A DNA stretch of 32,000 nucleotides. It comes from Candidatus Scalindua sp. Lineage in GTDB: Bacteria > Planctomycetota > Brocadiia > Brocadiales > Scalinduaceae. The notes below the pieces were generated by a model. The model saw only the letters and a program-made list of their open reading frames with translations, did not search any database and was not told the DNA's origin. Below, piece by piece: positions 1 to 30,001 of the stretch; position 1 is the stretch's first letter; each line of letters starts with the position of its first letter. Both the position numbers and the translations under genes were made by a program. The stretch covers positions 270,001-302,000 of the forward strand of contig JALDRA010000001.1 of NCBI GenBank assembly GCA_031316235.1, read 5' to 3'.

Positions 1-62
1 TCAATGGTAAGGATTTTCGTGTTTAGGGAAGCACCCTTATTAATTCCTGCCATTTGAATCAT
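1..62 (-). CDS. 5' end of a hypothetical gene running off the window (MIQMAGINKGASLNTKILTI...)
   Basis: ATG at 62..60, 17 nt downstream of the wzc-like stop on the same strand. The frame stays open to position 1. Only 20 codons are visible, so no functional call is possible. Confidence 0.3.
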   Translation of the reverse strand, partial: MIQMAGINKGASLNTKILTI

Positions 63-78
63 AAGGATATTCCCGAGT

Positions 79-2715
79 TCAATATCCGTAGTAGGTGGAG
101 TCTTTTTTCGCCTGATTCAATATAGTGCCTACGACACGTGTATCAGACTCTTTCAGGAAATTGGCTGCTTGATTCACCATTTTGACAGAAGCATGTCCAG
201 ACTTGACAACAAAGATTACGCCATCAACTAAAGGTAGCAATGGCCTCACACTGCCTAATGCTTCCAACAATGGCGGTGCATCTATAAGTACGATATCGAA
301 GCGTTGTTTCAGGATATCCAATACCTTTGTAAGGAACGTAAAATACTGTGGACCTTCATTTCTCAATTCATCACTACCTGAAGTTAATAAAGAAAGGCTC
401 AATCCCTCAATGGATTTAAGACATGAGAGAACTTCATTTTCAACCAATCTGCTGCCCACCATACGGCCCAAACGCTTGATAATGGATGAGTAATCTTCCT
501 GGAAATGAATTCTTCTGTCCTCATAGGTCTCCACATGTCCTGGTTCGAAAGCATATTCACCCTGTTTCCAGCTGAACAACTTTTGAAGGTGTTCTTCCAT
601 TTGAAGTTTTAAAGGGCCCTGTAATTGACTTTGATTAATATAGCCTGAGTTAATGAGAATATATCCCATAGGCAGACCGGTACGTTTGTTTCGATCCAGG
701 GCATCTTTCAATTGATTCTCGTCAATAAATCCACCGCGAAGAAGCATTGTTCCCAACCGATTGGCAAAGGGAACTTCCTGGCTCTGGAGGTGAACCAGCC
801 GGCCATTTTCAAAGACAACAGTCATAGCTTGAGAATCATCTTTTACCACAAGTTTTCCACTCTGCTTTTTCAAAGAAATAAGAAAGAACAGATCATCGAT
901 ACTGCACGTATCTAAAGTCCCATGATCCAGGTTCTTTGACAGTATCTTTGTCATAATATTCAACAATCCATTCCGATTCCCATTATCTAAACCAAACTTG
1001 TTATGCAGAGACGGCCGTTGCAGATCTGCATCAACCATTGCTACACGCAGCCCGCCCTTTGCCAGATTTATGGCTGAATTTGCAAGTACTGTTGTCTTTC
1101 CTTCACCAACAGTTGCACTTTCGATCAAGAGTATTTGTCCAGACATCCCCGATTCCAGGAGAGGCAATCCGCATATCAGACTACTTGAAACATTATAATA
1201 TCTCCCACTTCTCACCTTGTCTTTCTTCTGCTCGTTAAGTTTCAACTGGGACCCATTCGTCGGTAAAACAAGCGACTCTGTCCTGTTCAGATACCTGTTA
1301 TATGGTAACATGCCTATAACAGGCAGTTCAAGATGCTGCATGATGTCCTCTGGAGTCCTGATCGTTTTGTCCATATATTCAATGAAAAAAGTAAATCCCA
1401 AACCAAAAAACAGCCCCATGACTACAGCCAGTGAAATATTAAAGATAACATTTGGTTTGACAGGCAGACGGGGAATAACCGCAGCATCAACGATGCTGAT
1501 GTTTTGGCTCTCCATATTGCCAGTAAGATTGATTTCTTTGGCTTGTTTCAGCAGGATATCATAAATTGCCTTATCACTTTCCGCCTCCAATTCCAACATA
1601 CCATAATTTGTAAACTTACCATCATACAAATCAGCCTGCGAATCCTTCTCCGCCAGAATCTGTGTTTCAGTGCCCACATCAACCACTGCTCGGTCTAATT
1701 CTATCCTCATCGACTCTTTTAACCGACCCGCTTCATCAACAATACTCTTTTCCAGCTGGCTTATGCTTGAATCAATCTCAATGATCTTTGGATGCTTAGG
1801 ACCATACTTGGTATTCAGCTCCATTTTATTCGTCCTTAGCTGAACTAATTGTCTGCGCAGATCCTGGATGACATAGTGGTCTTTCACTTCCGGCAACGCG
1901 AAAAAACTGTCACTATCCACTGGATGGAAATCAATCTCATTAAATTCAAATTCGCTGATTGAAAGGATAGACTTTGCAAGCTTAATTTTATGATCTCTCA
2001 GCTGATTCTTCAGCCAGTTAAAGGTATTTTGAGATGCCATACTTTTTAATTGGTTGTTTCTCTCAACAAACGCCTTTACATGCGAATTAGCAATTCGTGC
2101 CGCCATTTCTGGAGAGTGATCGTTAAAGCTTATGCTCACTATATTGGTTTTTGGTATAGGTATAATTTCGAGTTCTGAAAGATACCAACTCACTACCTGT
2201 TTCCGCTTTAAGAGTATCTCTTCATCTTTTACATCTTTTCCGCTGCCTTGTCTTTTTGGAACTTCCGGAGTATTTGAACTCGAAGGGGATAAAGATTTTT
2301 TGATAAATCCCTGAAAGTCATTCATCAGTGAGACAATAAAGTTCGGTTTTTCCTTATTGGCCTCATAATATTCCTCCAGCTGCAAGTCTTCAGTAATCTT
2401 TCTGGCAAGATTCCTGCTTTTGAGTAATTCACACTGTGTATCAAAGTAAAAGTCACTCCGGGTATCCATATCTGAAACCTGAGTCATGCCTTTAACAGGC
2501 GAAGAAAATCCTTCGATCATCACCTGAGCGGTTGCCTGGTAGACAGGTTTTGTATAATAGGTTTTGACGGAGACCACGGATATTACCGCCAGGAAGAAGG
2601 TGATGGCAATCCATTTACGTTTCCAGATGATAGAAAGATAGTCCGCAAGATGTACTTCCTGTTCAAATGTTGTTCTCGGTGGCGGGGTATAGTCTCGATT
2701 CGTTTCATTTCTCAT
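79..2715 (-). CDS. Polysaccharide co-polymerase / bacterial tyrosine autokinase (Wzc/GumC/EpsG-like) with an inserted DUF4388-like + MshEN-like module
   Basis: ATG at 2715. N-terminal TM (res ~34-50), a long coiled-coil Wzz-like region and a second TM (res ~425-447). Walker A GEGKTT (537-542), Walker A' VAMVDADLQRP (558-568), Walker B DIVLIDAPP (807-815) and C-terminal Tyr cluster STYYGY. Starts 24 nt after the wza-like gene. Confidence 0.85.
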   Translation of the reverse strand: MRNETNRDYTPPPRTTFEQEVHLADYLSIIWKRKWIAITFFLAVISVVSVKTYYTKPVYQATAQVMIEGFSSPVKGMTQVSDMDTRSDFYFDTQCELLKSRNLARKITEDLQLEEYYEANKEKPNFIVSLMNDFQGFIKKSLSPSSSNTPEVPKRQGSGKDVKDEEILLKRKQVVSWYLSELEIIPIPKTNIVSISFNDHSPEMAARIANSHVKAFVERNNQLKSMASQNTFNWLKNQLRDHKIKLAKSILSISEFEFNEIDFHPVDSDSFFALPEVKDHYVIQDLRRQLVQLRTNKMELNTKYGPKHPKIIEIDSSISQLEKSIVDEAGRLKESMRIELDRAVVDVGTETQILAEKDSQADLYDGKFTNYGMLELEAESDKAIYDILLKQAKEINLTGNMESQNISIVDAAVIPRLPVKPNVIFNISLAVVMGLFFGLGFTFFIEYMDKTIRTPEDIMQHLELPVIGMLPYNRYLNRTESLVLPTNGSQLKLNEQKKDKVRSGRYYNVSSSLICGLPLLESGMSGQILLIESATVGEGKTTVLANSAINLAKGGLRVAMVDADLQRPSLHNKFGLDNGNRNGLLNIMTKILSKNLDHGTLDTCSIDDLFFLISLKKQSGKLVVKDDSQAMTVVFENGRLVHLQSQEVPFANRLGTMLLRGGFIDENQLKDALDRNKRTGLPMGYILINSGYINQSQLQGPLKLQMEEHLQKLFSWKQGEYAFEPGHVETYEDRRIHFQEDYSSIIKRLGRMVGSRLVENEVLSCLKSIEGLSLSLLTSGSDELRNEGPQYFTFLTKVLDILKQRFDIVLIDAPPLLEALGSVRPLLPLVDGVIFVVKSGHASVKMVNQAANFLKESDTRVVGTILNQAKKDSTYYGY

Positions 2716-2739
2716 ATTAATATCCTAACATTTTAAAGG

Positions 2740-3594
2740 TTAAAAATATCGTCCTGGAACCTTAATAATGTCGTCAGGCATCACAATATCTTCCATACGA
2801 GTATCAATTTCCTGTTCTCGACCATTTATCAGACGAATGATCTTTGTTCGTTTCAAGGCAGCATTTTCAGTATACCCTCCTGCACGGGACACAGCTTCAC
2901 GAACAGTCAGGCCTGTCTCCCATTTGAATTCACCAGGCCGCATTATCTCTCCGTTAACAAATATCCTGGAAATTTTGTTAACATAAATAGTATCACCGCT
3001 GGTAACATAAAATACATCATACGCGATATCGTCACTGTATTTCGATAGATCTAATGTTATCACACTGTTGTCTTCAAGATTCACAGGTGAAATAACCCCT
3101 TTATGATTTTGAAGTTGTTTCGGTCTTACTATTTTTATTACTCTTCCTGCCAGGTCAGTAAATCCGCCAGCCATCGAGATTAATTCCAGTATATGGGTTT
3201 TTCTTTTCAGAACATAACTTCCAGGTTTTTGTATTTCACCAAGGAGAAACACTTTTTGATTCCTGTACTGCTGAATACCAACCGACACTTCAGGCTTTAC
3301 CAGATAACCATCACTTAATCTTTTTTTTAAGTGATTTTCAAGCTCAAAGAGTGTAAGGCCGGCAGAGTGTACCTTGCCAATAAGGGGAAAGGTAAATGCA
3401 CCGTCCTTTGATACCTCAACAACACGGTTTAAATCGTCATTGTCCCACACCTGTATAGTGAGAATGTCATCTGAACCTATATGGTATTCTTCATCAAAAA
3501 GAGTTTCAGCAGAGATATCTGAGTCTGAAATTCTAGAAAAAACGAGGAGGCAAAGACTTGTCAATAGTATTTTTAAAAGAAATTTATAACACAT
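2740..3594 (-). CDS. Outer-membrane polysaccharide export (OPX) protein, Wza/GumB-like
   Basis: ATG at 3594 and an N-terminal signal peptide (LLKILLTSLCLLVF). Poly_export-type region DDILTIQVWDNDDL...DGAFTFPLIGKVHSAGLTLFELENHLKKRLSDGYLVKPEVSV, followed by SLBB-like repeats (VFLLGEIQKPGSY; IFVNGEIMRPGEF). Confidence 0.85.
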   Translation of the reverse strand: MCYKFLLKILLTSLCLLVFSRISDSDISAETLFDEEYHIGSDDILTIQVWDNDDLNRVVEVSKDGAFTFPLIGKVHSAGLTLFELENHLKKRLSDGYLVKPEVSVGIQQYRNQKVFLLGEIQKPGSYVLKRKTHILELISMAGGFTDLAGRVIKIVRPKQLQNHKGVISPVNLEDNSVITLDLSKYSDDIAYDVFYVTSGDTIYVNKISRIFVNGEIMRPGEFKWETGLTVREAVSRAGGYTENAALKRTKIIRLINGREQEIDTRMEDIVMPDDIIKVPGRYF

Positions 3595-4332
3595 TAATCA
3601 ACAACTCCCAAAAAATTATATTAACAAAATTAATGGCAATTGAAAGAGAAATCCACAACCTGTTTTCTTAACCGCGGAGGTCGAAAAATCGTACTTTTGA
3701 ACCTTTTTCAATAACCAGACGCTCTTTATTATTGCCTATCCGGGTAGAAAAAACCTTTTGCAGCCTCTCATATTCAGATTGCTCTCTCAAATAATTATCG
3801 AAAGCACCATATAAATCTGTAGACTTTTTTTAATTGCCCGCACAATGATCTTAGGGAATGGGCCGGTAAATAGTATTCCAGCAATTGGAGTGCCGCAGTC
3901 CTCAAAAAAAACAATACCCGGAACGGAATCTGGCAGTATTCCTGATGAGGAATTAAGATAGTGAGGTTAAAACTACCTCTAACAGTGGTTTTAAAGGAGG
4001 CAAAATAAGTTATGGCTGTTTTTAAAATCAATATCCTTTTTATTAATTTTCCTGAAAAACATAACGGCTGAACGGTTTAATTGAAAATGGGATACAATAG
4101 TTGACAAGTAAAAGCACTGGTTTTTTATTTCTTAGTGATTCCTTTTTGCAGAAAAACAGCATACTGACCCATGAGGTTGTCTAAATAGTAGACAACTACT
4201 CACCAGGATAGGCAGAAAAATAGACAGCGGCTGACTGCTACGTTAAAGACTTCATCCCTTATCTCCCTTTTAGGTCAACACGAAGAGATACCTATACCGC
4301 ACAATGTCTACCTGAAGTGGCAAGTGGTTTGA

Positions 4333-4444
4333 TATACTAAAACCGATTTGGTTTTCGGTTTTACCGGAAACCAAATCCTGGTGAAGGTATACTCGCTCAA
4401 TTTTATCTCGGATATTATCCGAAATCCAGTATGAGATGAGTATA
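4333..4444 (+). repeat. Two-hairpin dispersed repeat, copy 1 (short form, 112 bp)
   Basis: tatactaaaaccgatttggttttcggttttaccggaaaccaaatcctggtgaaggtatactcgctcaattttatctcggatattatccgaaatccagtatgagatgagtata. Termini are TATACT/AGTATA. It ends 26 nt from the kinase stop codon. Confidence 0.9.
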
Positions 4445-4469
4445 GTGAAAATGTTAGCTTACGGAATAG

Positions 4470-6587
4470 TTAAGTTGTCGGTACTTCCGGGCTTTTTTCA
4501 CTTTTCAAGGGAAGGCACATCCTCAAGGACATTAATATTTTATCTGCAGGCTCACCAAGTTCGGAGTAAGGCTGTATGTTATAATTACAACTCTTCGTCT
4601 CTGATTCTTTGATGCTCACTAAATTTTTATATATTGAGCCCACTAAATGCTTCAGGTCTAATTCTGAAAATGATTTCGTTTGTCTGGCTGTTGGAGAATC
4701 TTTTATAGTATCTGTCTTCACATTCTTGCCATCATCGTTGATCCCGCCCTCTGCAGAAACATAACTATGTGTCTTATTTCTCGTCATACATTTAACTATT
4801 TCGAAAAGGATTGAAAACGGTATTGGTTTTCCGTTTGTGTCTGTCAAATAGTACCTGATAATGGGGTTTATTTTCATAGACTTCAGGTATCCATGGAGCA
4901 ATTCATTAGCACCAAGCCGTGATGTCTGGGTTCGGTGTATTATATAGCCGAAAACCGTTTTTTCCTTTAATTCAAATAAAGATTGCTTTTTAAACTTCAT
5001 AAGCTCCAAATCAAAATCAGTAGAATATTTACCATAGTTATTGGCTTTTATCTCTTCCTCAACTAAATGTGTTTCATCCAGACATAAAGCAATAGCCAAT
5101 GTCATGCAGGAACCATGTATTTTCTTTATATCTTCATTTTCCTGTGATAGTGATGGCTCCAGGCATTTTACGTAAAATTTTTCCGGGTTTTTCCCCCCGG
5201 ATGACAGAAAATACAAGATAGAGCCTAATGAGAAAATATCACTATGTTGACTTGTCTGCTTAACGATATAAGCATGGTAATACAACTTGGGTACAATTGG
5301 TATTATTTTTGTCTTTACCGTGACAATAAATAAGTTATCTTCGATTCGTATATCTTCAATCTTGGTAATTTGCCTTGCATTTTCTTTACTTCCAAAAAAG
5401 ACCTCTTGACTTTCAAGCCAGTCTCCCGGTTCAAGTATTTTATCACCTATATTGAGAAATGTTATTGTTGTATGGGTGTCATCATCGTTACTCTTGCCAT
5501 CTAAAATGGTAAAATGGATTTCATAACCGTTATCAATTTGTTCCGGGGCTCGGAAAGGTATCGTTCCTAATGCCAAAGCACCTGGTTCCTTAGAACTTCT
5601 GGCCATTGTGTCAGAACCGTTTATGATCGAATTAACACCGCTTACAAAACCCAGATCGGAAATCTTAATGTTGAAATAATTAATTTCAGGAGGCTGTAAC
5701 GAAATTAAAAAATTGCCAGGCTTGATATCCCTGTGTGCCAATGCGCCGTCTTCAGATATTGTCTCATGAATATTTCGTACTGATGCTAATATTTGTGTAA
5801 ATAAATCTATTATGATTCGATATTTCAGCGGATTAGAAAGTTTCCCTATTAATCGTAAAATATTAATACCGCTGAAGTCACTTATTCCGCCTATCTCTAC
5901 CCGCTCTTCTAATTGTGCTTTGTTATTCAAATCATCAAAGAGTTTCCTTATAAATACCTCTTTTCTGTTTCTAAATTCAGTCAAAGCATACCCAAGCTTA
6001 TCACTTACCGCATACAATGTGTGATCACGCCAAGGATGTTGATAGGTAATCAAATCATCCAAAGTACCATGCTCTGCCCTCATTACAAAAAAATCGCCTT
6101 GCAGTTTATCAAGAAACTCTTTAGAAAGATTGTTTACAATACTTTCATTATTTCTCCTTGAGGATTCCGCATATTGTTCTCTGCTGACAAATTCTAAAAC
6201 CTCCTTTTCGTCTTCAGTCTCTTCTCTAAGAATATTTTCATAAGGAGGAGAAGTAAAAATATTGGAGAAACCGACATACTGCACAAAATGGTCAAATTTA
6301 TCTATTCCAAATGTTCTTGTCTTGTTTATCTCCTCGTAGAATCTTCTTAATGCAATTTGAGAAAACATTAAACTTTGATCATCATATTTAAGAAATTTAA
6401 TAGCATAAAACTCAGTTGCACTTGAAGGGTTAGATGAATTGGAAGCCAATGCTACATTAGCATATCTACCGCTCCCCATAATTACCGGTTTTTCATCATA
6501 TAAGATAAAAAATATTTCTTTAATAATCTTTTTTCCTTTTGTATCTTCCAATCCTGTAGCAATGTATAAAGGAATTGCTTTAACCAT
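4470..6587 (-). CDS. Atypical Hanks-type Ser/Thr protein kinase with several large insertions and an uncharacterised ~250-aa C-terminal region
   Basis: Numbering follows the 713-aa track ORF. Gly loop GSGRYANV (46-53), AIK Lys72, HRDIKPGN (293-300), DLG (319-321), APE (355-357), DIFSLG (458-463). The track start at 6611 is TTG. The ATG at 6587 is preceded by GGAG with a 5-nt spacer, so I prefer it. Confidence 0.75.
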   Translation of the reverse strand: MVKAIPLYIATGLEDTKGKKIIKEIFFILYDEKPVIMGSGRYANVALASNSSNPSSATEFYAIKFLKYDDQSLMFSQIALRRFYEEINKTRTFGIDKFDHFVQYVGFSNIFTSPPYENILREETEDEKEVLEFVSREQYAESSRRNNESIVNNLSKEFLDKLQGDFFVMRAEHGTLDDLITYQHPWRDHTLYAVSDKLGYALTEFRNRKEVFIRKLFDDLNNKAQLEERVEIGGISDFSGINILRLIGKLSNPLKYRIIIDLFTQILASVRNIHETISEDGALAHRDIKPGNFLISLQPPEINYFNIKISDLGFVSGVNSIINGSDTMARSSKEPGALALGTIPFRAPEQIDNGYEIHFTILDGKSNDDDTHTTITFLNIGDKILEPGDWLESQEVFFGSKENARQITKIEDIRIEDNLFIVTVKTKIIPIVPKLYYHAYIVKQTSQHSDIFSLGSILYFLSSGGKNPEKFYVKCLEPSLSQENEDIKKIHGSCMTLAIALCLDETHLVEEEIKANNYGKYSTDFDLELMKFKKQSLFELKEKTVFGYIIHRTQTSRLGANELLHGYLKSMKINPIIRYYLTDTNGKPIPFSILFEIVKCMTRNKTHSYVSAEGGINDDGKNVKTDTIKDSPTARQTKSFSELDLKHLVGSIYKNLVSIKESETKSCNYNIQPYSELGEPADKILMSLRMCLPLKSEKSPEVPTT

Positions 6588-6782
6588 TTTTTCTCCAATT
6601 TCACTAACCAATAATTATAAATGACACTGAAACAACTCACCTGATTCCTTTATTCAGTACGAGAAAAAAGCCGGGCAGTTGTCTTATAAATATCTTACCG
6701 TCTCAGAAGCATTATAATCACAATCCTTATTAATGGAGAGAGCGGCTCTTTATCTTTCAATAAAAATAACCGATTACAATGT

Positions 6783-13109: not shown

Positions 13110-16100
13110 TTATCGTGTCGATAATGAAAGGGTTGTATGTATGCGATCGCCATTTACGGATTTGTTGATTTTACCATCTATAATAAATAGCTGTTCATTT
13201 GGTACTCCTCCCTTCACGATAAGATAGTTCTTGATCTGTTTTGCTCTCTCCCGGGCCAAAGTTCTCAGCATTGTATCATCAATAAGAATTTTATCGATGA
13301 GGTGTCTTTTGGCTGCCGCTACAACCCCTCCGGGTTCAACTGTTCCAGCTTTGCTCTCTGGATGTTCATCCTTGTCACTATTTTCACGATGAAAATCAGG
13401 GCCACCATCATCACCAAACAGCTTCTTTGGATGGTGACCAAAATCTCTCTTATACATCGTAATGATAAGACGTCCATACTCCTCATCTGATAAAGAGATG
13501 TCTTGAGTCCGGGAATAATCCGTCCCGGTCGGGATCGTCCTTCCTCCTTCACTCAACATCCTGTTATGTAATTCCCACTCTCCCAATGCCTTCCGGTCAT
13601 TCTTGTCATCTGCAGATGCCCTGATTTCAAGCATAAGCATAGGTCTCTCAAAAAGTGCCTTAGCCAGTTTGTCCAGTTTCCTGACTTCCCGATCACTGAG
13701 TTCCGATCTTCCGTATTTAAACTCAACAGATCCAAGCTCTTCATCTCCTCCACCTACAAGCCCCGCCAGGACAGAAAATGGCGAGGTCACTATCTTGGTA
13801 ACCAGACCCACGAAAGCCTTCAGAATAACACTTCCATAATTAAACTCCGGGTCATTGAGTTCTCCACGAATCGGCAGATCCAGGTCTATTCTCCCTTGAC
13901 GGTCTTTAAGCAGGGCTATTGCAAGTTTGACAGGTAATTTTGTGGCATCTTTACTGTCAATACGATCACCAAGAGTCAGCTGATCTACCCGGATTACATT
14001 CTCGCCAATAAGCAGATTTTCTGACAGTTTGTACTTCAAATTTAACGATATTTTCCCTTTCTCGATGGGATATCCTGCAAATTTTGCAGAGTATGGAGTA
14101 GCTGTGGTGAGTTCCATGTTTTTGAAGATAAGTGATAAATCGGCATATTTTTGAGCACTTAAAAGATTTATTTTACCCGCAATGGTTACCGGTGCATGTT
14201 CATCAACTTCACCCTTGAGTACAACATCAGCTCTTGTCCCAGACTCAGAGGTTACCCCCTTCACAATCCCGTTTAACCCCTCCATATGAATAACAAAATT
14301 TGGCTTGAGGGTAAGATCGGTAAAATCGGCTGATCCATTTTCAATTCGAATTTCATCAATGTTAATGGGAAAGGGGCTGAGATCAAAAGTGGAACTCCCT
14401 TCTGCCACCAAAGAGTCTCCGTCTGACTTCCGGTCATCTTCTGCAGGCAACACCCTGGACAAGAACAGTTTTTCTTGACCTTTCCTGCTGTCTGACATCG
14501 CCAGCACCGTTGACAAATTTATGGTACCGTCCTGCCAGATAATGACCTTTGCGTATGGTTTACTGGCAACAACTTCGGAAATATTTATCCCATAAGGTAT
14601 TACGTTGCAGGATATTCCACTTAATGAGAGTGATTCCCACTTAAGTAACTCTTCAGAGAATATTTGATCTGAAATCCGCAAACTCTCAATCTTCGCATCA
14701 CCCTCATAGCGCACAAGAGGTCCTTCGCTCCCCAAGCTCATATAGTTAACTGAGCCATCAAGGTCTAGGGTACCGCCAACAATAGTAATCTTTGTGAAGG
14801 CATTCAATGTCGGCTGAAAAGAGCTCAGGGGCAATCTGGTTGCCTTGGCATGAGCGACTGCAAAAACAGGATCCATACCCGCCTCTCCTGCAAGATGTAT
14901 GGTCCCGGTTTCATTCAGCCCAAGATCTATGGAGAGTTCCATTTTCGAATCTTTCTCATTGCTCAGATTCTTCAGATTTACCGTAACAGGATCAAGATTT
15001 AATTTTTGTATTTCGGGTAATGTATGATTTTGCATACGTATGCGAGAATCTTCCACGTTCACTTCATGAACAGTAAAACGCCAGGTCTTCCCCTCTCCGG
15101 CAGCACTGGTTAACCTCGTAAAATCCCCCTCATCCCTCTCACGAACGCTATCAGGAATAAAGAGTTTCTGGGAGTGCATAATGCCATCCTTATCAAGCCT
15201 GTCGTGAAATTTCAAATCCATAGTATACACTTTGCCAATAACAGCCTCCTTTTGTGAGAAATCAATGTCAATACCTTTCACAGAAAGGGAAGGTATCGAG
15301 AGCAATTCACCCGTATTCTCCTTCTCAACAAGTTCCAATCCACCAAGTTTCATATTGCCATCTACAAGTTTCAGATCGATCCCCCCCCCACTCAAACCCA
15401 CACTGTATCCTGCATCCATGTCAAGATAACCATCTGATACTATGAAACCAACCTGATCTTGAATGTATTCCCATAAAGTACTGGTCTGTACTTTCGATAG
15501 GGTAAGCTTTCCATGAGAACCCAGAGGATTGACAGAAATATCTCCTTCACAGTAGAGCTCTCCACCTTTGCTTGTTTTTGCCCTGACGAGATAGCGGCCA
15601 GCACTATTTTCCCTGGTACTGAAACTCTCTAACAAAATTTTTACTGGAGACAATTTTACTTCGAAAGGAGTAGGATGCGAGAGATCACTGTATTCAAGAC
15701 GGCCCCGCTCGATCTGTAACCGTGAAATGATAACTGGAGGCAGGGCACTGTTTTTTTCAGTTAAAGAACCACTCGTACCCAGTGAAGCAATGAGATCAGA
15801 AAAATTAAATTTCCCATCAGGTAGAATCTGCACCTTTCCATCAGGCCTAACCAGGCGGATCTGCGCAAAAGTAAATGCCCTGCGAAAAAGAGATGAAAAC
15901 TGGAAGTTAACATACAACTCATCAAAATGAAAAAATCTCTCTCCATTCAGTTCACTCATTTCAAAATCTCCCACGGTTAATGAAAGAGCAAATGGGTTGA
16001 TTCTCACTTGTTCAATGACGACATTACGGCCAAATGTCTCAGTCAGACCTGATATGAGCTTAGATCTCACAATTGAGGGTGCAATAAGTAATCCTGTAAT

Positions 16101-16184
16101 GGTATATAAAAGAAAGATGGCAGCTGCAATGGTGACATACTTCATGGCAGCCGGCAGCTTGTGGTAAAACTCACCTATCCCCAT
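13110..16184 (-). CDS. DUF748 / AsmA-like large envelope protein
   Basis: N-terminal TM anchor (VTIAAAIFLLYTITGLLIAP) and a long beta-rich repeat body. DUF748-type segment: FKNMELTTATPYSAKFAGYPIEKGKISLNLKYKL. The track start at 16196 is GTG. The ATG at 16184 has GGAG with a 6-nt spacer. Confidence 0.7.
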   Translation of the reverse strand: MGIGEFYHKLPAAMKYVTIAAAIFLLYTITGLLIAPSIVRSKLISGLTETFGRNVVIEQVRINPFALSLTVGDFEMSELNGERFFHFDELYVNFQFSSLFRRAFTFAQIRLVRPDGKVQILPDGKFNFSDLIASLGTSGSLTEKNSALPPVIISRLQIERGRLEYSDLSHPTPFEVKLSPVKILLESFSTRENSAGRYLVRAKTSKGGELYCEGDISVNPLGSHGKLTLSKVQTSTLWEYIQDQVGFIVSDGYLDMDAGYSVGLSGGGIDLKLVDGNMKLGGLELVEKENTGELLSIPSLSVKGIDIDFSQKEAVIGKVYTMDLKFHDRLDKDGIMHSQKLFIPDSVRERDEGDFTRLTSAAGEGKTWRFTVHEVNVEDSRIRMQNHTLPEIQKLNLDPVTVNLKNLSNEKDSKMELSIDLGLNETGTIHLAGEAGMDPVFAVAHAKATRLPLSSFQPTLNAFTKITIVGGTLDLDGSVNYMSLGSEGPLVRYEGDAKIESLRISDQIFSEELLKWESLSLSGISCNVIPYGINISEVVASKPYAKVIIWQDGTINLSTVLAMSDSRKGQEKLFLSRVLPAEDDRKSDGDSLVAEGSSTFDLSPFPINIDEIRIENGSADFTDLTLKPNFVIHMEGLNGIVKGVTSESGTRADVVLKGEVDEHAPVTIAGKINLLSAQKYADLSLIFKNMELTTATPYSAKFAGYPIEKGKISLNLKYKLSENLLIGENVIRVDQLTLGDRIDSKDATKLPVKLAIALLKDRQGRIDLDLPIRGELNDPEFNYGSVILKAFVGLVTKIVTSPFSVLAGLVGGGDEELGSVEFKYGRSELSDREVRKLDKLAKALFERPMLMLEIRASADDKNDRKALGEWELHNRMLSEGGRTIPTGTDYSRTQDISLSDEEYGRLIITMYKRDFGHHPKKLFGDDGGPDFHRENSDKDEHPESKAGTVEPGGVVAAAKRHLIDKILIDDTMLRTLARERAKQIKNYLIVKGGVPNEQLFIIDGKINKSVNGDRIHTTLSLSTR

Positions 16185-16235
16185 AGAAAACTCCACCTGT
16201 AAAGATATGATAGAAATAAAACAGCTTCTCAGCGA

Positions 16236-18716: not shown

Positions 18717-19331
18717 ATGGATAGAGCAAAAAAAAACAAAAAGAGAAAGAGTTTGAAAGAAGAAATATTTGTCATCGATACAAGCATCTTTACTAATAAG
18801 GAGGTAAGTAAGTCGTTTGGAAAGACACCGACAACCGCTTTAAGAAAATTTTTACGCCTGATTAATAAATTCGAAGGGCCTTATTTCTACATGCCGCCCT
18901 CTATTTACAGTGAACTCATGAATTTTATCGATGTTGAAAAAATACCAAAAGATCTCCAGATTAAAATCTTCCAGAAGCCGCCGAAAAAATACGAGATGAG
19001 TGTTCCATCCTTTTTGCTTTATGAGTTGATCGAAGATGTCCGTCTGCGCATTGATAAGGGTTTGAGAGTTGCAGAACAGGCTGTAAGGAACGTAATGACG
19101 AATACCGAACCCGAAAACATCACAAATCTACGGAAAAAATACCGCTCTGCATTACGGGAAGGTATCATTGACAGCACTGAAGATGTTGATCTGATCCTCC
19201 TGGCAAAGGAGCTCGATGGTATTCTGGTTACCGCCGATACGGGAATTATGACCTGGGCAGACAAACTGGGCATACGTTTCATTGAATCAAGAAACCTCCG
19301 GGGGATTCTTGACAGCTTAATCAAAATGTGA
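18717..19331 (+). CDS. PIN-domain protein of the 'RNA ligase partner' (MJ_0950-like) family
   Basis: PIN acidic residues in IFVIDTSIF (D21), [18 protein letters not shown] and LVTADTGI. It is adjacent to, and its 3' end overlaps, a Pab1020-type RNA ligase gene. Confidence 0.7.
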
Positions 19332-20453
19332 AAGACCTTCCCAGTATTTCCGGATAATTTCGTACGTAGGATAACATCTCCTCTCAAATTTTACATGCCA
19401 ATAGTTCCCTATCTTTCTCTGGTTGATTAATACCGCATTTACGCTGCATTTATGAAAATGATCGAACAGCTTCTGTATGCTTTTCTCATGAATGAGCCTT
19501 ACATGAAACTCTTCAGCAACCATTTCTCCAGAGATCGCTTTCTTTGCACTCTCAAATAGTGGGAGTAACAGAGATTCCCCGGTCTTCTGCATGATAGTTT
19601 TATCAAGCGGGAGCTCATTGTCCAGAAGGTAAAAAATTACTCTGAATAGCCTCTGGGTAAAAAACTCTGCCGGAATTTCCAACATCAAACCAGAAGTTAC
19701 TCTCATGTCACGGTAACACGAACCTGCTGTAACGTATTTTACCATTTTTTCATCCGGACTCACCGGCTTTAACACAACGCCTTCACACCCTCTGTCATTA
19801 AGCTCTTTCAGGACTCTTTTTATCCTTCCTATATCTGAGTTAGTGTGTCTTCCAAAGCAGGTTACCGTGGGTATCTTATACCTGTCGAACAATCTGTACT
19901 TCTCTTCTGTCGGGACGTGTTTGTCCGTATTTTTCGTTCTTATGTCGAATGCGAAGAACTTAACGTCCTCCTTTACATAGGAAGGATATCCTCTATTATA
20001 GGGGTTTTCGGGACCAGCTATTTCCCCACACACTATCAAATGCGGATTATCGCTGAAAAATTCTTCACTGTTAAAGAAATCTCCTACTCTATCGGTAGTA
20101 AATGGACAGACATAACTTCCTCGTGTGAAGGCGAACACATTACCCCCTATCTCAGCAACTCTTACGTTGTAGCCATCCACCTTTTCCTCAATATAAAAGG
20201 GTCTGTTAAAAGCTGCTTTTATACCACTTTCTAACCGCATAATTCTTGCTATCTGTGGAAAATGGAAAATGATATCGGACTCGTTAACGACCGAACCTTT
20301 CTCTAGTTGTCCAACTTTTTTGACAAATCGATAATAGGTAAAACCATCGAACTCATCAGCAACTACCTTGTGGTTATCCAGTGCTTCTCTCCACTGATCT
20401 TCTGTTATATTAACCTTTGAGAGTGTTTCCAGAATCCCTGACATTTTATTCAC
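19317..20453 (-). CDS. ATP-dependent RNA ligase, Pab1020/Rnl3-like (archaeal type)
   Basis: Nucleotidyltransferase motif [12 protein letters not shown] (Lys91), motif III-like [13 protein letters not shown], motif [10 protein letters not shown], motif V MVKYVT. Length is 378 aa. Confidence 0.8.
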
Positions 20454-25214: not shown

Positions 25215-25421
25215 TTCCTTCTGCATAAGGAGCCTTTTGTTCAACCAATCTGCGCTGCTGCCTAAAGCACTTCATCAGTGTGTGGACGCATTGGTGATGT
25301 AAGCAGGTTTACAAGTTGAGGCTCTATCTATACCCTTTCTGCTGACCATCTCAGCTGAAAATATATCTGTTACAATTTTCTCATTTGTTTATAACAAGCA
25401 TTTAAAATGTGTGGAGCATTG

Positions 25422-26507
25422 ATGAAAAGACATTTCATACTCGTAAGCCTGATTGCCCTGTTATTCCATGCAGGCTGTGAAACAGAACACAGAGAACATA
25501 AAAAAGAGGATGTCAAATTTCTGGTTACCTGCCCGACGAGAAAAGACACTTCCATTACCAGGGATTACGTATGTCAAATCCATGCCATACAACATATTGA
25601 AATAAGAGCACTTGAAGGAGGCTACTTAGAGAAGACTTTTGTTGATGAAGGGCAGCTGGTAGAGAAAGGGCAGCTTATATTTCAGATCATGCCCGTCATA
25701 TACCAGGCCGAATTTGAGAAAGCACAGGCCGAAGCAGAAGGGGCAAAAATTGAATACTTAAATACCAAGTCGCTTGCGGACAACAATGTAGTATCTCCTA
25801 ATGAGTTGGCAATGAGTAAGGCCAGATTCGATAAAGCGAAGGCTGAAATGGACCTGGCCCAGGCACACTTGAGGTTTGCGGAGATCAGAGCTCCCTTTGA
25901 TGGTTTGATGGGCCGCTTCCAGGTAAGGCTTGGAAGCCTTTTGGAAGAAGGCGAACTGCTCACCACTTTGTCGGACAACAGTGAAATGTGGGTGTATTTC
26001 AATGTGCCGGAAGCGGAATATTTAGATTACAAAACAAGGAAAAAAAACGACAGCCCGGTAGAAGTCAAGTTACAAATGGCAAATAATCAGCTTTTTGAAC
26101 ACCCAGGAGTAGTTACCGCCATTGAAGCCGACTTTAACAACGAAACAGGCAATATTGCTTTCAGGGCAACATTTCCCAACCCGGAAGGACTGTTAAGGCA
26201 TGGGGAAACAGGTAATATCCTAATGACCAAAGCTCTCAAAAATGCACTGCTGATCCCGCAGAAAGTCACTTTTGAGATCATGGACAAGAAATACGTTTTT
26301 GTCATAGATGAAAACAATGTGGTAAGACCAAGACAAATTACTATAGGTGAAGAAATGACGCACATCTATGTGATAAAAGAAGGTTTGACTGAAAGCGATA
26401 AGATACTATTACAAGGTCTGCGCAAAGTAAGAGATAAGGATGTAATAACCTATGAATTTCAGGAGCCCGATTCGGTAATGGCTCACCTGGAATTATATGC
26501 AGAATAA
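25422..26507 (+). CDS. RND efflux periplasmic adaptor (membrane fusion protein, AcrA/MexA-like) lipoprotein
   Basis: Lipobox FHAGC. Also a biotinyl/lipoyl-like hairpin (GYLEKTFVDEGQLVEKGQLIFQI), a coiled-coil hairpin, and IRAPFDGLMG. The ATG at 25422 has GGAG with a 5-nt spacer. The track start is 25407. Confidence 0.9.
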   Translation: MKRHFILVSLIALLFHAGCETEHREHKKEDVKFLVTCPTRKDTSITRDYVCQIHAIQHIEIRALEGGYLEKTFVDEGQLVEKGQLIFQIMPVIYQAEFEKAQAEAEGAKIEYLNTKSLADNNVVSPNELAMSKARFDKAKAEMDLAQAHLRFAEIRAPFDGLMGRFQVRLGSLLEEGELLTTLSDNSEMWVYFNVPEAEYLDYKTRKKNDSPVEVKLQMANNQLFEHPGVVTAIEADFNNETGNIAFRATFPNPEGLLRHGETGNILMTKALKNALLIPQKVTFEIMDKKYVFVIDENNVVRPRQITIGEEMTHIYVIKEGLTESDKILLQGLRKVRDKDVITYEFQEPDSVMAHLELYAE

Positions 26508-26509
26508 TG

Positions 26510-26648
26510 TATACTAAAACCGATTTGGTTTTCGGTTTTACCGGAAACCAAGTCCTGGTGAAGGTATCCCCGGACAAAAAGCGCCGAGGACTTTACTCGC
26601 TCAATTTTATCTCGGATTGTATCCGAAATCCAGTATGAGATGAGTATA
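26510..26648 (+). repeat. Two-hairpin dispersed repeat, copy 5 (long form, 139 bp) inside the efflux operon
   Basis: It starts 3 nt after the MFP stop codon and ends 28 nt before the RND pump ATG. The 27-nt insertion ccccggacaaaaagcgccgaggacttt (26568-26594) is relative to the short form. Confidence 0.9.
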
Positions 26649-26676
26649 AGTAACAAGAAAGGTAAAAAAGACAATC

Positions 26677-29600
26677 ATGTTCAGTACAATTCTTCACAGG
26701 CCTATCTTCGCAATTGTCATATCGCTCGTCATTGTTTTCATGGGTGGATTGGCCATAACACAGCTACCGGTATCGCAGTTTCCGGAAATCGCTCCCACAA
26801 CGGTAAATATTTTTATCGCTTATCCGGGCTCCAGTGCCGATGTGTTGGTTAATTCCACCCTTATTCCATTGGAAACGGCTATCAATGGTGTTCAGGGAAT
26901 GAGGTACATAGCATCTGACGCTACCAGTGCCGGAGAGGCTACCATCCGGATAATATTTGAACCCGGTACTGACCCTAATCAGGCGGTTATAAGAGTGAAA
27001 ACAAGGGTGGATCAGGTGATGCCCCTTCTTCCTCTGCTGGTTCAACGGGAAGGAGTCATCATCACACCGATACAGCCCAGCATGTTGATGTATGTGAACC
27101 TCTACAGTGAAGATAAAGATACCGATGAAATGTTCCTTTACAATTACTCCTATACCAAAATGATACCGGAAATACAACGAATTAACGGTATAGCGATGGC
27201 GCAAATACTGGGGAGTCGGAAATATGCAATGCGCATCTGGTTGAAACCTGATCGGATGCGGGCATATAACATCTCGGCAGAAGAAGTGATGAAGTCAATG
27301 GCGGAGCAAAGCATCATAGGCAGGCCGGGAAGATTAGGGCAAAGTTCAGGAATACATGCACAATCGGTGGAATATGTGCTGACATACCAGGGAAGGTATA
27401 ACAAGCCGGAACAATATGGGAATATCATCATTCGGGCCAATGAAGAAGGTGAAATACTCTACCTGAAAGATATAGCCAATGTAGAGCTGGGAAGCGAATT
27501 TTTTGACATCTATTCCAACATTGACGGTCATCCGGCGGCATCCATTGTTTTAAAACAAACAGTCGGCAGTAATGCCAAAGATGTAATCAGGCAGGTAAAG
27601 ACCAAACTGGAAGAATTAAAAGCGGAATTCCCACCGGAAATGGATTATAAGATCAGTTATGATGTATCGCAATTTTTGAGTGCCTCTATTGAACAAGTGA
27701 TGCATACGTTACGAGATGCATTTATATTGGTAGCTTTAGTCGTATTTATCTTTCTTGGCGACTGGCGCTCCACGTTGATTCCGACACTGGCCGTTCCGGT
27801 ATCCCTGATCGGCGCCTTCTTTGTCATGCAGTTTTTCGGACTTTCCATCAACCTGGTCACCTTATTTGCCCTTGTACTGGCCATTGGTATTGTCGTTGAC
27901 GATGCCATTGTGGTGGTAGAGGCCGTACATGCCAAAATGGATAAAGAGCACCTGTCGCCATACAGTGCCACCAAACAGGTGATGAAAGAGATCAGCGGCG
28001 CCATTATTGCCATTACAATGGTTATGACAGCAGTATTTATCCCTGTCTCATTCATGACGGGCCCGGTAGGTGTATTCTACCGGCAGTTTTCCATTACGAT
28101 GGCTGCTTCCATTATTATTTCGGGTATTGTTGCACTTACGCTTACACCGGTGCTGTGTGCCATCATATTGAAGAATACGCATGGTAAAACGAGAAGAAAA
28201 TCACCGATCAAGTGGTTGCTCGGCTACTTCAACAAGGGGTTCGAAAAGCTGACAGGAAAATATGTAGGATTGCTGAAATTAATAGCAAACAGAAGATTGG
28301 TCACTTTCGGGATATTGCTGGTATTTGGTGTAGGGATATTCCTGGTAAATATGGTTGTTCCGACAGGATTTGTTCCCGGCGAAGACCAGGGAACAATCTA
28401 TGCCATTATACAAACCCCTCCGGGCTCCACTCTGGAATTAACCAATCAGGTAGCCCAAGAACTGCAGAAAATTTGCAAAGAAACTGATGATATTGAATCG
28501 GTTGTTTCATTGGCGGGTTATGAGATCATGACAGAAGGACGAGGCTCTAATGCGGGGACATGCCTGATCAGCCTTAAGGAGTGGTCGGGCCGTAAACAAT
28601 CGGTTCGTGAGATCATAGAGGAAATGGAAGAAAAAACGAAGGATCTTGGAGCCATCATAGAGTTTTTTGAACCACCTCCTGTGCCGGGATTTGGTTCTTC
28701 CGGCGGTTTTTCCCTGCGCCTGCTTGATAAAACCAATTCTACGGATTACCATGAATTTGAAAAAATAAATAATGAATTCATGGACGCCATGCGCAGGCGA
28801 AATGAGCTGTCCGGCTTATTTACCTTTTACGCGGCCAATTACCCTCAATATGAGTTGGAGATAGACAACAAAGCTGCAATGCAGAAAGGAGTGTCTATCG
28901 AAAGAGCAATAGAAAACCTCAACATTCTGATAGGGAGTACTTATGAGCAAGGATTTATTCGATTTGGCCGTTTTTTCAAAGTTTACACACAGTCGGTTCC
29001 GGAAAGCCGAAGGTTCCCATCGGATATTGAGAAACTGTATGTAAAAAATAAACATGATGAGATGGTGCCTTATTCATCATTCATGAAGATGAAAAAAACA
29101 CAAGGCCCCAATGAAATTACCCGTTATAACTTATACAATTCGGCAGCCATCAGGGGATTTCCCGCACGGGGGCACACCACTGGCGAGGCCATACAAGCGA
29201 TACGGGAGATAGCTGAGGAAACTTTGCCCATAGGGTATGACATCGCCTGGGAAGGCCTTTCGTTTGATGAAGCCGCACGGGGAAATGAAGCGGTTTATAT
29301 CTTTGCTATCGTGCTCATTTTTGTCTATTTAGTGCTTGCCGCACAGTACGAGAGCTTCATCTTGCCACTGGCGGTAATCTTTTCTCTGCCGATCGGAATA
29401 TTCGGTTCGTTTTTACTGCTCAAGCTCACGGGATTGGCCAACGACGTTTACGCCCAGGTGGGAATGATCATGTTGATCGGCCTGCTGACCAAAAATGCCG
29501 TGCTGATCGTGGAATTTGCCGTTCAGAAACATCGACAGGGAGCGACCATACTCGATGCGGCCATAGAAGGTGCCAGGGTGCGTTTTCGACCAATCCTGAT

Positions 29601-29910
29601 GACTTCCTTTGCCTTTTGTGCGGGATTGATACCCCTGGTTACTGCCACCGGTCCTGGTGCCATTGGTAATCGTACCATAGGCTCATCCTCTCTTGGGGGT
29701 ATGCTTATGGGAACCGTTTTCGGGGTAATCGTTATTCCCGGATTATATTACATATTCGGTAAACTCATCGAAGGCCGCCAACTCGTAAGAGGTGAATATA
29801 GCGAACCCCTGACCGAGGGATATGTACATTCAAAAGACATACATCTCAACGTTTGTACTGGCCTTTCCACCGGCCTGAGCAAAGAAGATGTACCTTCAAA
29901 GGGACGTTAG
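26677..29910 (+). CDS. RND multidrug efflux permease (AcrB/HAE1 family)
   Basis: 1077 aa. N-terminus FIHRP-like (ILHRPIFAIVISL). 12-TM architecture with two large periplasmic loops. Conserved GIVVDDAIVVVE and LLTKNAVLIVEFA. Confidence 0.95.
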   Translation: MFSTILHRPIFAIVISLVIVFMGGLAITQLPVSQFPEIAPTTVNIFIAYPGSSADVLVNSTLIPLETAINGVQGMRYIASDATSAGEATIRIIFEPGTDPNQAVIRVKTRVDQVMPLLPLLVQREGVIITPIQPSMLMYVNLYSEDKDTDEMFLYNYSYTKMIPEIQRINGIAMAQILGSRKYAMRIWLKPDRMRAYNISAEEVMKSMAEQSIIGRPGRLGQSSGIHAQSVEYVLTYQGRYNKPEQYGNIIIRANEEGEILYLKDIANVELGSEFFDIYSNIDGHPAASIVLKQTVGSNAKDVIRQVKTKLEELKAEFPPEMDYKISYDVSQFLSASIEQVMHTLRDAFILVALVVFIFLGDWRSTLIPTLAVPVSLIGAFFVMQFFGLSINLVTLFALVLAIGIVVDDAIVVVEAVHAKMDKEHLSPYSATKQVMKEISGAIIAITMVMTAVFIPVSFMTGPVGVFYRQFSITMAASIIISGIVALTLTPVLCAIILKNTHGKTRRKSPIKWLLGYFNKGFEKLTGKYVGLLKLIANRRLVTFGILLVFGVGIFLVNMVVPTGFVPGEDQGTIYAIIQTPPGSTLELTNQVAQELQKICKETDDIESVVSLAGYEIMTEGRGSNAGTCLISLKEWSGRKQSVREIIEEMEEKTKDLGAIIEFFEPPPVPGFGSSGGFSLRLLDKTNSTDYHEFEKINNEFMDAMRRRNELSGLFTFYAANYPQYELEIDNKAAMQKGVSIERAIENLNILIGSTYEQGFIRFGRFFKVYTQSVPESRRFPSDIEKLYVKNKHDEMVPYSSFMKMKKTQGPNEITRYNLYNSAAIRGFPARGHTTGEAIQAIREIAEETLPIGYDIAWEGLSFDEAARGNEAVYIFAIVLIFVYLVLAAQYESFILPLAVIFSLPIGIFGSFLLLKLTGLANDVYAQVGMIMLIGLLTKNAVLIVEFAVQKHRQGATILDAAIEGARVRFRPILMTSFAFCAGLIPLVTATGPGAIGNRTIGSSSLGGMLMGTVFGVIVIPGLYYIFGKLIEGRQLVRGEYSEPLTEGYVHSKDIHLNVCTGLSTGLSKEDVPSKGR

Positions 29911-30001
29911 AACAAGTTCTTAAAAATCTGCGGAAGGCTAACAAACTGATTAAAAGATTGTTAAGGAGCAAAAAAGAGAGTAATCAAAGAAATGAAATAC
30001 C

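Follow-up and report, generated by a model that had tools for sequence, protein, structure and literature searches.

A Wzc-like polysaccharide co-polymerase of Candidatus Scalindua with a P-loop domain split by a PATAN/DUF4388 insert that carries an MshEN_N-type motif

The window analysed in this study is a stretch of 32,000 nucleotides from Candidatus Scalindua sp. (assembly GCA_031316235.1, contig JALDRA010000001.1, positions 270,001 to 302,000 of the forward strand). An open reading frame (ORF) on the minus strand, at 79-2715, in which residue i starts at nucleotide 2715-3(i-1), encodes an 878-residue Wzc-like protein of the polysaccharide co-polymerase class PCP-2a. According to an exact look-up, this protein is NCBI MDR4503364.1, 'DUF4388 domain-containing protein [Candidatus Scalindua sp.]'. 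Its P-loop domain, of the bacterial tyrosine kinase (BY-kinase) type, is split by a PATAN/DUF4388 domain between Walker A' and the strand LSLLTSG. Judged by hidden Markov model (HMM), match to Protein Data Bank (PDB) sequences and predicted fold, the centre of this insert is a genuine MshEN_N-type motif, the type found in the cyclic di-GMP (c-di-GMP) complex of MshE. Two hydrophobic segments (~34-54 and 423-447) bracket the Wzz/GNVR periplasmic region, which is the layout of PCP-2a (Wzc) proteins. The kinase gene lies 24 nucleotides downstream of a gene for an outer-membrane polysaccharide export (OPX) protein at 2740-3594. All residue and nucleotide positions given for the kinase in an earlier, sequence-only description of this DNA (hereafter the initial annotation) were found in the ORF 79-2715. 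The features are as follows, with the basis of each in brackets:

79..2715, minus strand: whole gene of the 878-residue PCP-2a/Wzc-like protein (ORF, Pfam and NCBIfam domains)
2386..2658, minus strand: Wzz chain-length-determinant domain, residues 20-110, with the first transmembrane segment at about residues 34-54 (Pfam PF02706, E = 2.9e-8; hydropathy)
1375..1596, minus strand: GNVR motif region, residues 374-444, and the second transmembrane segment at about residues 423-447 (Pfam PF13807, E = 9.7e-13; hydropathy)
931..1143, minus strand: N-terminal half of the BY-kinase P-loop domain, residues 525-595 (Pfam, NCBIfam and phmmer; strand and helices in the AlphaFold2 model)
1090-1107, minus strand: Walker A, GEGKTT, residues 537-542 (sequence)
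1012-1044, minus strand: Walker A', VAMVDADLQRP, residues 558-568 (sequence)
within 931..1143, minus strand: helix GLLNIMTKILSK that follows Walker A' in the N-terminal half (AlphaFold2 model)
418..930, minus strand: inserted PATAN/DUF4388 domain, residues 596-766 (Pfam PF14332 at 598-733; gap against insert-less kinases; AlphaFold2)
residues 599-624, minus strand: GTLDTCSIDDLFFLISLKKQSGKLVV, within the PATAN insert (sequence)
601..759, minus strand: MshEN_N-type 53-residue motif nested in PATAN, residues 653-705 (NF053729, match to 5HTL, Foldseek)
residues 653-705 in detail, minus strand: half I, residues 653-676 (RLGTMLLRGGFIDENQLKDALDRN); spacer KRTGL, residues 677-681; half II, residues 682-705 (PMGYILINSGYINQSQLQGPLKLQ) (sequence)
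residues 710-726, minus strand: LQKLFSWKQGEYAFEPG, within the PATAN insert (sequence)
82..417, minus strand: C-terminal half of the P-loop domain, residues 767-878, with the strand LSLLTSG (alignments, sequence)
residues 769-780, minus strand: IEGLSLSLLTSG, in the C-terminal half of the P-loop domain (sequence)
271-297, minus strand: Walker B, DIVLIDAPP, residues 807-815 (sequence)
82-99, minus strand: C-terminal tyrosines, STYYGY, residues 873-878, with three Tyr (sequence)
2740..3594, minus strand: OPX gene, 284 residues, Wza-like, Poly_export and two SLBB domains (Pfam)

The P-loop domain (ParA/AAA_31/CbiA) was matched in two pieces, at residues 527-588 and ~794-872 by Pfam, and at ~527-590 and ~794-878 by Pfam and NCBIfam taken together. 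Each half also resembles VpsO, CapB, BceF, Etk and Wzc in sequence. In the phmmer search of PDB sequences, the alignment with the CapA1B1 chimera falls in two stretches (query 28-88 with chain 84-142, and query 269-378 with chain 155-265), so that ~180 query residues stand where CapB has ~13. Alignment with 44 insert-less CapB/Wzc-type kinases (MAFFT) left a single clean gap of ~170 columns between the helix GL(L/T)N..... (here GLLNIMTKIL) and the strand NLxLLTSG. The AlphaFold2 model of residues 501-878, built from an 82-sequence alignment, has a mean predicted local distance difference test score (pLDDT) of 88.4 and a predicted TM-score (pTM) of 0.87. Its best Foldseek matches are all BY-kinases (Wzc 7NHR/3LA6, CapAB 4JMP/2VED/3BFV, Etk 3CIO, VpsO 6U1Q and BceF 6Z0P), span both halves with E = 5e-8 to 1e-6, and give TM-scores of 0.57-0.74 when normalised to kinase-domain-only targets. 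The Walker A Lys, the Walker A' DxD and the Walker B Asp are kept throughout the insert-bearing family, most members of which end in a Tyr-rich tail with 2-6 Tyr (YYGY, YYYK, up to GYYGYYGY). The BY-kinase cut-offs of NCBIfam were not reached (TIGR01007, 72.9 against 108; TIGR01005, 157 against 411.7; PRK11519, 84.7 against 1068); as a consequence of the split, the matches fall into two or more stretches.

Several elements of canonical BY-kinases have changed in this protein. The motif PxNPxELL that follows LLTSG is lost in the PCP-2a insert family, according to the alignment with insert-less kinases, and Ser569 stands at the place of the regulatory Tyr569 of Wzc, with no equivalent of Tyr569/Tyr574. 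In CapB and Wzc, the motif EX2RX2R makes the ring contacts between subunits. A YYNVSSSLICGL-like segment replaces it at 1153-1191 of the window (~residues 509-521), and lies at the same place in L001-L036.

The insert itself was assigned to PATAN/DUF4388 by PF14332, with 75.6 bits against a cut-off of 25 (E = 4.6e-21, residues 598-733) in the whole protein and 81.7 bits in the excised insert. Profile positions 1-102 are spread over 136 residues, which corresponds to an alpha-helical insertion inside the domain. AlphaFold2 predicted the order of elements as a strand, a helix, three strands, four helices, a strand, a loop and two helices; when residues 596-766 were modelled alone, the pLDDT was 84 and the pTM 0.76. 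This confident folding in isolation marks the insert as an autonomous domain, set in a loop of the P-loop domain. For the PATAN core (residues 596-649 and 720-766 of the insert model), Foldseek returned no significant solved relative, with weak matches of the actin, PilM and Ppx type at probability 0.2-0.4.

The initial annotation had described a P-loop domain split by a DUF4388-like module, and Pfam, alignment and predicted structure agree with it; the likeness of the insert ends to DUF4388/PATAN is likewise borne out by PF14332, well above its gathering score. The insert is ~170 residues long in the alignment, and in the predicted structure it ends at ~residue 766 (nucleotide 418), not at 750, which makes it slightly longer than the nucleotides 466-930 first assigned to it. 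The phrase 'sensor inside the ATPase fold' is right in that the module is inserted in the P-loop domain, and needs correction in that the module forms a domain of its own, placed in a surface loop and outside the P-loop core.

The MshEN_N assignment was based on four independent tests, namely an NCBIfam model, phmmer against the PDB, a relaxed pattern and Foldseek. The model NF053729 ('cyclic di-GMP-binding domain, MshE-related') matched residues 653-700 with 48.3 bits in the whole protein and 52.6 in the insert (cut-off 38), and the NfrB models of NCBIfam gave weak matches at the same residues. Residues 652-706 align without a gap to residues 8-62 of Vibrio cholerae MshE (PDB 5HTL, c-di-GMP complex; E = 3e-5), in the register R653/R9, N676/Q32, P682/R38 and Q705/Q61, and Thermus thermophilus PilF (6F8L) matched with E = 1e-8 via its three GSPII domains. 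The relaxed 24-residue pattern, after Wang et al. 2016 (PMC5013675), was found at residues 653 and 682 with a spacer of exactly 5. A chance motif was ruled out, as the composition of the protein would give only ~2e-9 such tandem matches.

The predicted structure points the same way. In the model of residues 501-878, the helices of the bundle lie at 650-660, 666-679, 683-689 and 695-715, and in Foldseek the insert model best matches 5htl_B, 'MshE with cdg', with a root-mean-square deviation of 1.4 A over 54 columns (39% identity, probability 1.00, E = 4.7e-2). The c-di-GMP-bound PilF GSPII-B (9gl5_A) was matched with a root-mean-square deviation of 0.7 A over 52 columns (probability 1.00, E = 0.34); these E-values are weak because the bundle match is short. 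The position-3 glycines and the Leu clusters (positions 2, 17 and 21) are present in both halves, with M683 at position 2 of half II (II-2), and the Arg is found in half I only and the Gln in half II only. HMM, 5HTL alignment, pattern and fold thus agree on the tandem MshEN-type motif with a 5-residue spacer that had been read from the sequence. The Pfam model T2SSE_N (PF05157), by which this motif was to be checked, gave no match even at E <= 10, since it also spans the C-terminal subdomain, which is absent here; NF053729 matches instead, above its cut-off. The motif belongs to the 'MshEN_N only' class, like those of EpsG and cce_1044 in Wang et al.

A pattern scan with one genome per species (185,579 species) identified 38 loci with the same architecture, including 34 complete genes of 810-922 residues. 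They are found in anammox bacteria (Scalindua, Jettenia, Brocadia, Kuenenia, Anammoxibacter and Loosdrechtia), as well as Desulfosarcina variabilis, Desulfatitalea, Desulfosudis oleivorans and other Desulfobacterales, Nitrospirota metagenome-assembled genomes (MAGs) and a few other bin labels. The orthologue of Desulfosarcina variabilis, a culturable species, is WP_419662196.1. The nearest loci, with 91-92% identity, come from Candidatus Scalinduaceae/Scalindua MAGs, which places the window in a marine anammox planctomycete. In the 38-sequence family alignment, the residues of half I are kept as R653 in 36, G655 in all, L658 in 37 and L669 in 37, and those of half II as P682 in all, G684 in 37, L698 in all and Q705 in 37. 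The last position of half I (I-24) is Asn in 26 sequences, this one included, His in seven, Gln in four and Ser in one. Mean column entropy is lowest in MshEN_N (0.81 bits), compared with 1.45 and 1.62 in the P-loop halves and 1.96 in the periplasmic domain. Between the Scalindua protein and the members from Desulfobacterota and Nitrospirota, identity is 61% in the motif and 37-47% in the catalytic halves. Conservation of the motif in orthologues, on which the initial annotation had made its claim depend, as on an HMM match, thus extends over three phyla, and the curated model accounts for the HMM match.

A frameshift or fusion artefact was ruled out, as the 34 complete genes, which come from independent assemblies, share the full-length architecture. 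Nor is the insert confined to anammox bacteria, as it is present in Desulfobacterota, in Nitrospirota and in P0102, a stand-alone CapB-like kinase of 390 residues. P0102 has the same insert at the same site and keeps ESYRTL, PPNPPELL, RLG in both halves and the Tyr tail; therefore, the insertion also occurs outside the divergent PCP-2a lineage. Multiple copies of the insert-bearing kinase gene are common (L002, L014, L019 and L033). Two are found in one locus of Desulfatitalea (L033, 1977-4619 and a second ORF of 911 residues), and Scalindua SCAELEC01 has three paralogues, two of which lie ~27 kb apart on one contig.

Outside the kinases, the insert has many relatives. A phmmer search with the 187-residue insert against 1.84 billion cluster representatives yielded 5088 matches at E <= 1e-3; the E-value is <= 1e-10 for 612 of them and <= 1e-30 for 30. 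The 150 best include 35 insert-bearing BY-kinases (DUF4388 in 35/35, NF053729 in 33/35) and 28 proteins of greater length, in which PATAN is repeated up to five times and in some cases joined by REC, TPR or DnaJ. Another 85 are proteins of <= 540 residues, mostly ~400, in which the match is mostly N-terminal and both DUF4388 and NF053729 are present in 85/85; in P0051, of the ~400-residue class, the motif is at residues 59-111. In these short proteins, the position-3 Gly is kept in 84/85 and 85/85, the position-24 Gln in 73/85 and 75/85, and the first position of half II (II-1) is Arg in 48, Lys in 18 and Pro in 11, counts that are biased upward because the set was picked by similarity to a motif-bearing query. 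Some ~400-residue PATAN(MshEN_N) proteins have a C-terminal T2SSG-like region, and P0039, P0040 and P0056 (1455-1492 residues) have five tandem DUF4388 repeats, several with a half-motif. When one ~400-residue protein was used as the query, 3022 clusters were found at E <= 1e-10, all named 'DUF4388 domain-containing' or 'hypothetical' (word-indexed search), and those named by organism are mostly Acidobacteriota and Nitrospirae.

PATAN with an embedded MshEN_N is thus a widespread, uncharacterised composite, and the presence of the motif in PATAN is not peculiar to the kinase insert. The insert-bearing kinase family is a rare offshoot in which this PATAN(MshEN_N) composite has been placed in a P-loop domain. 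The ~400-residue proteins are possible unrecognised c-di-GMP receptors.

The genomic context is that of a polysaccharide machine. Of the 38 loci, 25 have an OPX gene upstream of the kinase, and the genes downstream of the kinase (as in L001) are convergent and unrelated. Many related loci continue with Bac_transf, Polysacc_synt_2, DegT, Gfo/Idh-hexapeptide, UDP-sugar dehydrogenase and Wzx-like or ABC-2 genes. In Desulfobacterota and Nitrospirota (L025, L026, L027, L030-L032 and L034-L036), a 400-430-residue BBP2_2 beta-barrel gene is located upstream of OPX, which fits the short-OPX/beta-barrel composite translocon layout of Schwabe et al. 2022 (PMC9601211); it is not found beside the anammox loci. 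Upstream of OPX in the window lies a 713-residue ORF (4470-6611, minus strand), with a partial Pkinase match at residues 262-361, which occurs only in the closest Scalindua loci (L001-L003). In Brocadia pituitae (L013), a 710-residue ORF at 4098-6230 replaces OPX upstream of the kinase; it is probably a transposase insertion, since it has DruA-like, Tn5 DNA-binding and Tn5 dimerisation domains.

PilZ domains are encoded near several of the related kinases. Genes for STAS-PilZ proteins of ~250-270 residues lie a few genes upstream of the kinase in Brocadia and Scalindua (L010, 490-1263; L018, 2388-3134; L019, 949-1758; L020, 3156-3905). A 477-residue Glycos_transf_4 protein (WecA/MraY-type initiating transferase) with a C-terminal PilZ is encoded just upstream of the OPX-kinase pair at L008 (3894-5327) and L019 (2814-4247), and from its domain content it is predicted to be a second c-di-GMP input in these two paralogous Scalindua clusters. 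Therefore, c-di-GMP receptor domains recur in the related clusters. Pfam on a selection of ORFs, together with regular expressions, detected no GGDEF, EAL or HD-GYP gene in the window or the 38 loci, and one 'HD-GYP' expression match (L025, 1649-2626) was rejected as a universal stress protein. No Rfam family reached its gathering score in the window, and promoter and terminator scans of 1-4600 found sites no more numerous than in shuffled sequence. Other genes of the window are unrelated to the kinase: a 1028-residue DUF748 protein (13110-16196, minus strand), a Pab1020-type RNA ligase (19317-20453, minus strand) and an RND efflux operon (HlyD, AcrB and OEP; 25407-31438, plus strand).

The closest known relative in domain content is EpsG of Methylobacillus sp. 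12S (TIGR03029), which also combines MshEN_N with a BY-kinase P-loop in an exopolysaccharide chain-length system, and for which a c-di-GMP response is predicted. This 'MshEN_N - AAA_31' combination was catalogued in Supplementary Table 4 of Wang et al. 2016 (PMC5013675), together with 'MshEN - HD-GYP - REC - DUF4388' (MXAN_2809), and the idea of an MshEN_N/BY-kinase pairing is not wholly new because of that entry. However, EpsG has a simple N-terminal MshEN_N on a stand-alone kinase, whereas the Scalindua motif lies in PATAN, within the P-loop domain of a membrane-anchored PCP-2a protein; TIGR03029 reaches 45.2 bits on the latter against a cut-off of 313.8, in the P-loop only. In MshE, PilB and PilF (GSPII; 5HTL, 8PDK and 9GL5), the 24 + 5 + 24 arrangement is in register with the Scalindua motif and its predicted four-helix bundle, the module likewise sits on an ATPase that powers an envelope-spanning machine, and PilF GSPII-C shares the Pro at II-1. 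Those proteins are PilT-class hexamers with an N-terminal module, whereas the Scalindua protein is a MinD/ParA-class BY-kinase with a nested motif, without MshEN_C and without a T2SSE_N match.

Wzc and Etk of Escherichia coli, CapAB of Staphylococcus aureus, VpsO of V. cholerae and BceF of Burkholderia cepacia share with it Wzz and GNVR, two transmembrane segments, Walker A, A' and B, a Tyr tail and an adjacent OPX, but the Scalindua protein has a 170-residue insertion after the Walker A' helix and is without EX2RX2R and PxNPxELL. The PATAN domain of PatA-type regulators has the same hallmark alpha-helical insertion, as far as Makarova et al. 2006 is cited in PMC12448109; in known PATAN proteins the domain is terminal, alone or with REC, unlike the inserted copy of Scalindua. 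NfrB of E. coli (GT2 - MshEN, PMC8669469) also carries an MshEN-type motif on a polysaccharide-producing machine, but it is a c-di-GMP-activated, synthase-dependent glycosyltransferase, whereas the Scalindua protein is a PCP/OPX co-polymerase and kinase, probably Wzx/Wzy-dependent.

According to Han et al., the DUF4388 domain has > 8000 members, and some DUF4388 proteins are co-annotated with GspE_N, which was taken as a link to PilB. In the open-access literature, we found no description of a PATAN-embedded MshEN_N as a c-di-GMP site, nor any report that a BY-kinase binds c-di-GMP. In a 2025 review on capsule biosynthesis, the sole systems described as under post-translational control by c-di-GMP are synthase-dependent ones such as BcsA (PMC12220298). 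The initial annotation knew of no characterisation of this architecture, and none was found here; PATAN with the motif is widespread, and the EpsG fusion is already catalogued. The components and the general idea were known, and the nested position inside the P-loop fold is new.

Based on these results, c-di-GMP binding by the nested bundle is predicted, and by analogy with MshE and PilF we consider it probable. One c-di-GMP molecule would bind the four-helix bundle as in those two proteins, with the guanines stacked on the Leu clusters L654/L698/L702 and M683/L669/L673 and hydrogen-bonded to the backbone amides at G655 and G684. Binding would then alter the packing of PATAN against the P-loop domain or neighbouring subunits. 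The signal could pass through the two short connections into the P-loop domain, after the Walker A' helix and before the strand toward Walker B, or through inter-subunit contacts. As a result, the assembly of the kinase ring and its trans-autophosphorylation cycle would be shifted, and this cycle would govern polymerisation and export through the adjacent OPX protein. We infer the coupling to kinase activity or oligomerisation, as well as its direction; high c-di-GMP may favour extracellular polymeric substances (EPS), which would fit the general paradigm. For the whole proposal, a PCP-2a co-polymerase/kinase with a PATAN-MshEN_N c-di-GMP sensor that tunes the polysaccharide machine, we lean slightly towards acceptance.

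A number of observations weigh against this proposal. The motif departs from the strict consensus at four positions, N676 (I-24), P682 (II-1), M683 (II-2) and Y692 (II-11, where L/V/I/F is expected); the first three had been listed correctly as Gln to Asn and Pro-Met, and Tyr692 at position 11 of half II had been overlooked. There is no MshEN_C subdomain, which in MshE and PilF contributes further contacts. In this family, binding can be lost through minor departures from the motif. PilF GSPII-A, in which one half is near-perfect and the other degenerate, fails to bind even when the consensus alone is restored (PMC12002112); its site is blocked by a helix cap and subdomain contacts (PMC12002112), and therefore domain context, too, can veto binding. 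No diguanylate cyclase gene, phosphodiesterase or c-di-GMP riboswitch was found in the window. On the kinase side, EX2RX2R is absent before Walker A in the whole PCP-2a insert family, where the aligned segment is YYNVSSSLICGL, and L018, L022, L024 and L034 have a C-terminus without tyrosine; because of these two facts, the Wzc assembly and phosphorylation cycle may not apply as such.

Some of the departures have published precedents. PilF GSPII-C, whose sole departure from the consensus is Pro335 at the first position of motif II, binds c-di-GMP with an MshEN-like affinity of ~0.5 uM (PMC11731258). The Arg-to-Pro change reported in the initial annotation is real and has its counterpart in this c-di-GMP binder. 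PilF GSPII-B, with Lys and Leu at the 'Arg' positions, binds at 6 nM and was called the first c-di-GMP domain not reliant on arginine (PMC11731258). At the start of half II, PilF reads KPLGEILV and the insert-bearing kinase family PLG or PMG. For MshE, the isolated MshEN_N (residues 1-62) is enough for binding, at 0.35 uM and with the C-terminal subdomain removed (PMC5013675).

Three other explanations were considered. The insert might be a protein-protein interaction or oligomerisation module that senses no nucleotide, in which the bundle is structural, a degenerate receptor like XpsE/GspE or PilF GSPII-A, and PATAN recruits a partner or provides the subunit contacts that EX2RX2R gives other BY-kinases. 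Cyanobacterial PatA-type PATAN domains do act via PilB1 binding (10.1101/2021.06.11.447907; PMC9090330), and with EX2RX2R missing from the insert family, the PATAN module may have taken over subunit contacts. Non-binding degenerate MshEN domains are documented (PMC5013675; PMC12002112), and the deviations at I-24, II-1, II-2 and II-11 could be read as such degeneration. However, conservation is strictest at the ligand-contacting residues (both position-3 glycines, Q705 and the Leu clusters) and higher in the motif than in the catalytic core, and the Pro variant also occurs in PilF GSPII-C, a proven binder. XpsE, which does not bind, differs at eight key positions, among them both glycines (PMC5013675), and no change of that kind is seen here. 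We regard a pure docking role as unlikely, though it deserves attention, and docking and ligand sensing are not mutually exclusive.

A second alternative, which partly overlaps the others, is that the P-loop domain is not a tyrosine autokinase but a MinD/ParA-like ATPase or a pseudokinase scaffold, and that the signal of the insert acts on ATP-dependent dimerisation or periplasmic conformation rather than on a phosphotyrosine cycle. The absence of EX2RX2R and PxNPxELL, the mere three tyrosines at the C-terminus, the four homologues that end without any (L018, L022, L024 and L034) and the unreached BY-kinase models (TIGR01007, 72.9 against 108) would be explained in this way. On the other hand, sub-threshold HMM scores are expected from a split domain, the Walker A Lys, DxD and Walker B Asp are conserved, most tails are Tyr-rich, the top structural matches are all BY-kinases, and ESYRTL, PPNPPELL and a Tyr tail are all retained in P0102, which has the same insert. 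The loss of kinase function therefore seems quite improbable. Least credible of all is a bundle that binds another nucleotide (3',3'-cGAMP, pGpG or another cyclic dinucleotide) and a kinase that answers that signal: VcMshEN does bind cGAMP, more weakly (PMC5013675, Fig. 1 legend), and the invariant Pro682 and the Asn/His/Gln at I-24 are family-specific and ligand-proximal, but MshEN backbone amides read guanine O6 and N7 in both half-sites and leave c-di-AMP unbound, the glycine and Leu clusters are kept in both half-sites, and the PilZ domains in related clusters point to c-di-GMP.

The reading of the insert as a c-di-GMP sensor may be extended to its relatives, namely that the helical insertion of a large PATAN/DUF4388 subset is a working MshEN_N site and that the kinase insert directly switches a PCP/OPX (Wzx/Wzy-type) machine; we offer this combined proposal tentatively, with some doubt. 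If it is true, thousands of DUF4388 proteins in Acidobacteriota, Nitrospirota, Desulfobacterota, Planctomycetota and others would be unrecognised c-di-GMP receptors, and the conserved MshEN_N in many PATAN domains suggests a ligand for a domain of unknown function. Post-translational c-di-GMP control would then extend from synthase-dependent systems to Wzx/Wzy-type PCP/OPX pathways, and the regulation of BY-kinase cycling would gain a testable handle. The nesting has three levels, with the motif bundle in PATAN and PATAN in the P-loop domain, and because of it domain-based annotation misses both the kinase thresholds and the receptor.

Anammox and sulfate-reducing bacteria live in aggregates, and anammox granules matter in wastewater treatment (PMC11224092). 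According to the same review, the c-di-GMP level of anammox granules correlates with their EPS content (PMC11224092). The Scalindua kinase is thus a candidate receptor that may link c-di-GMP to anammox EPS.

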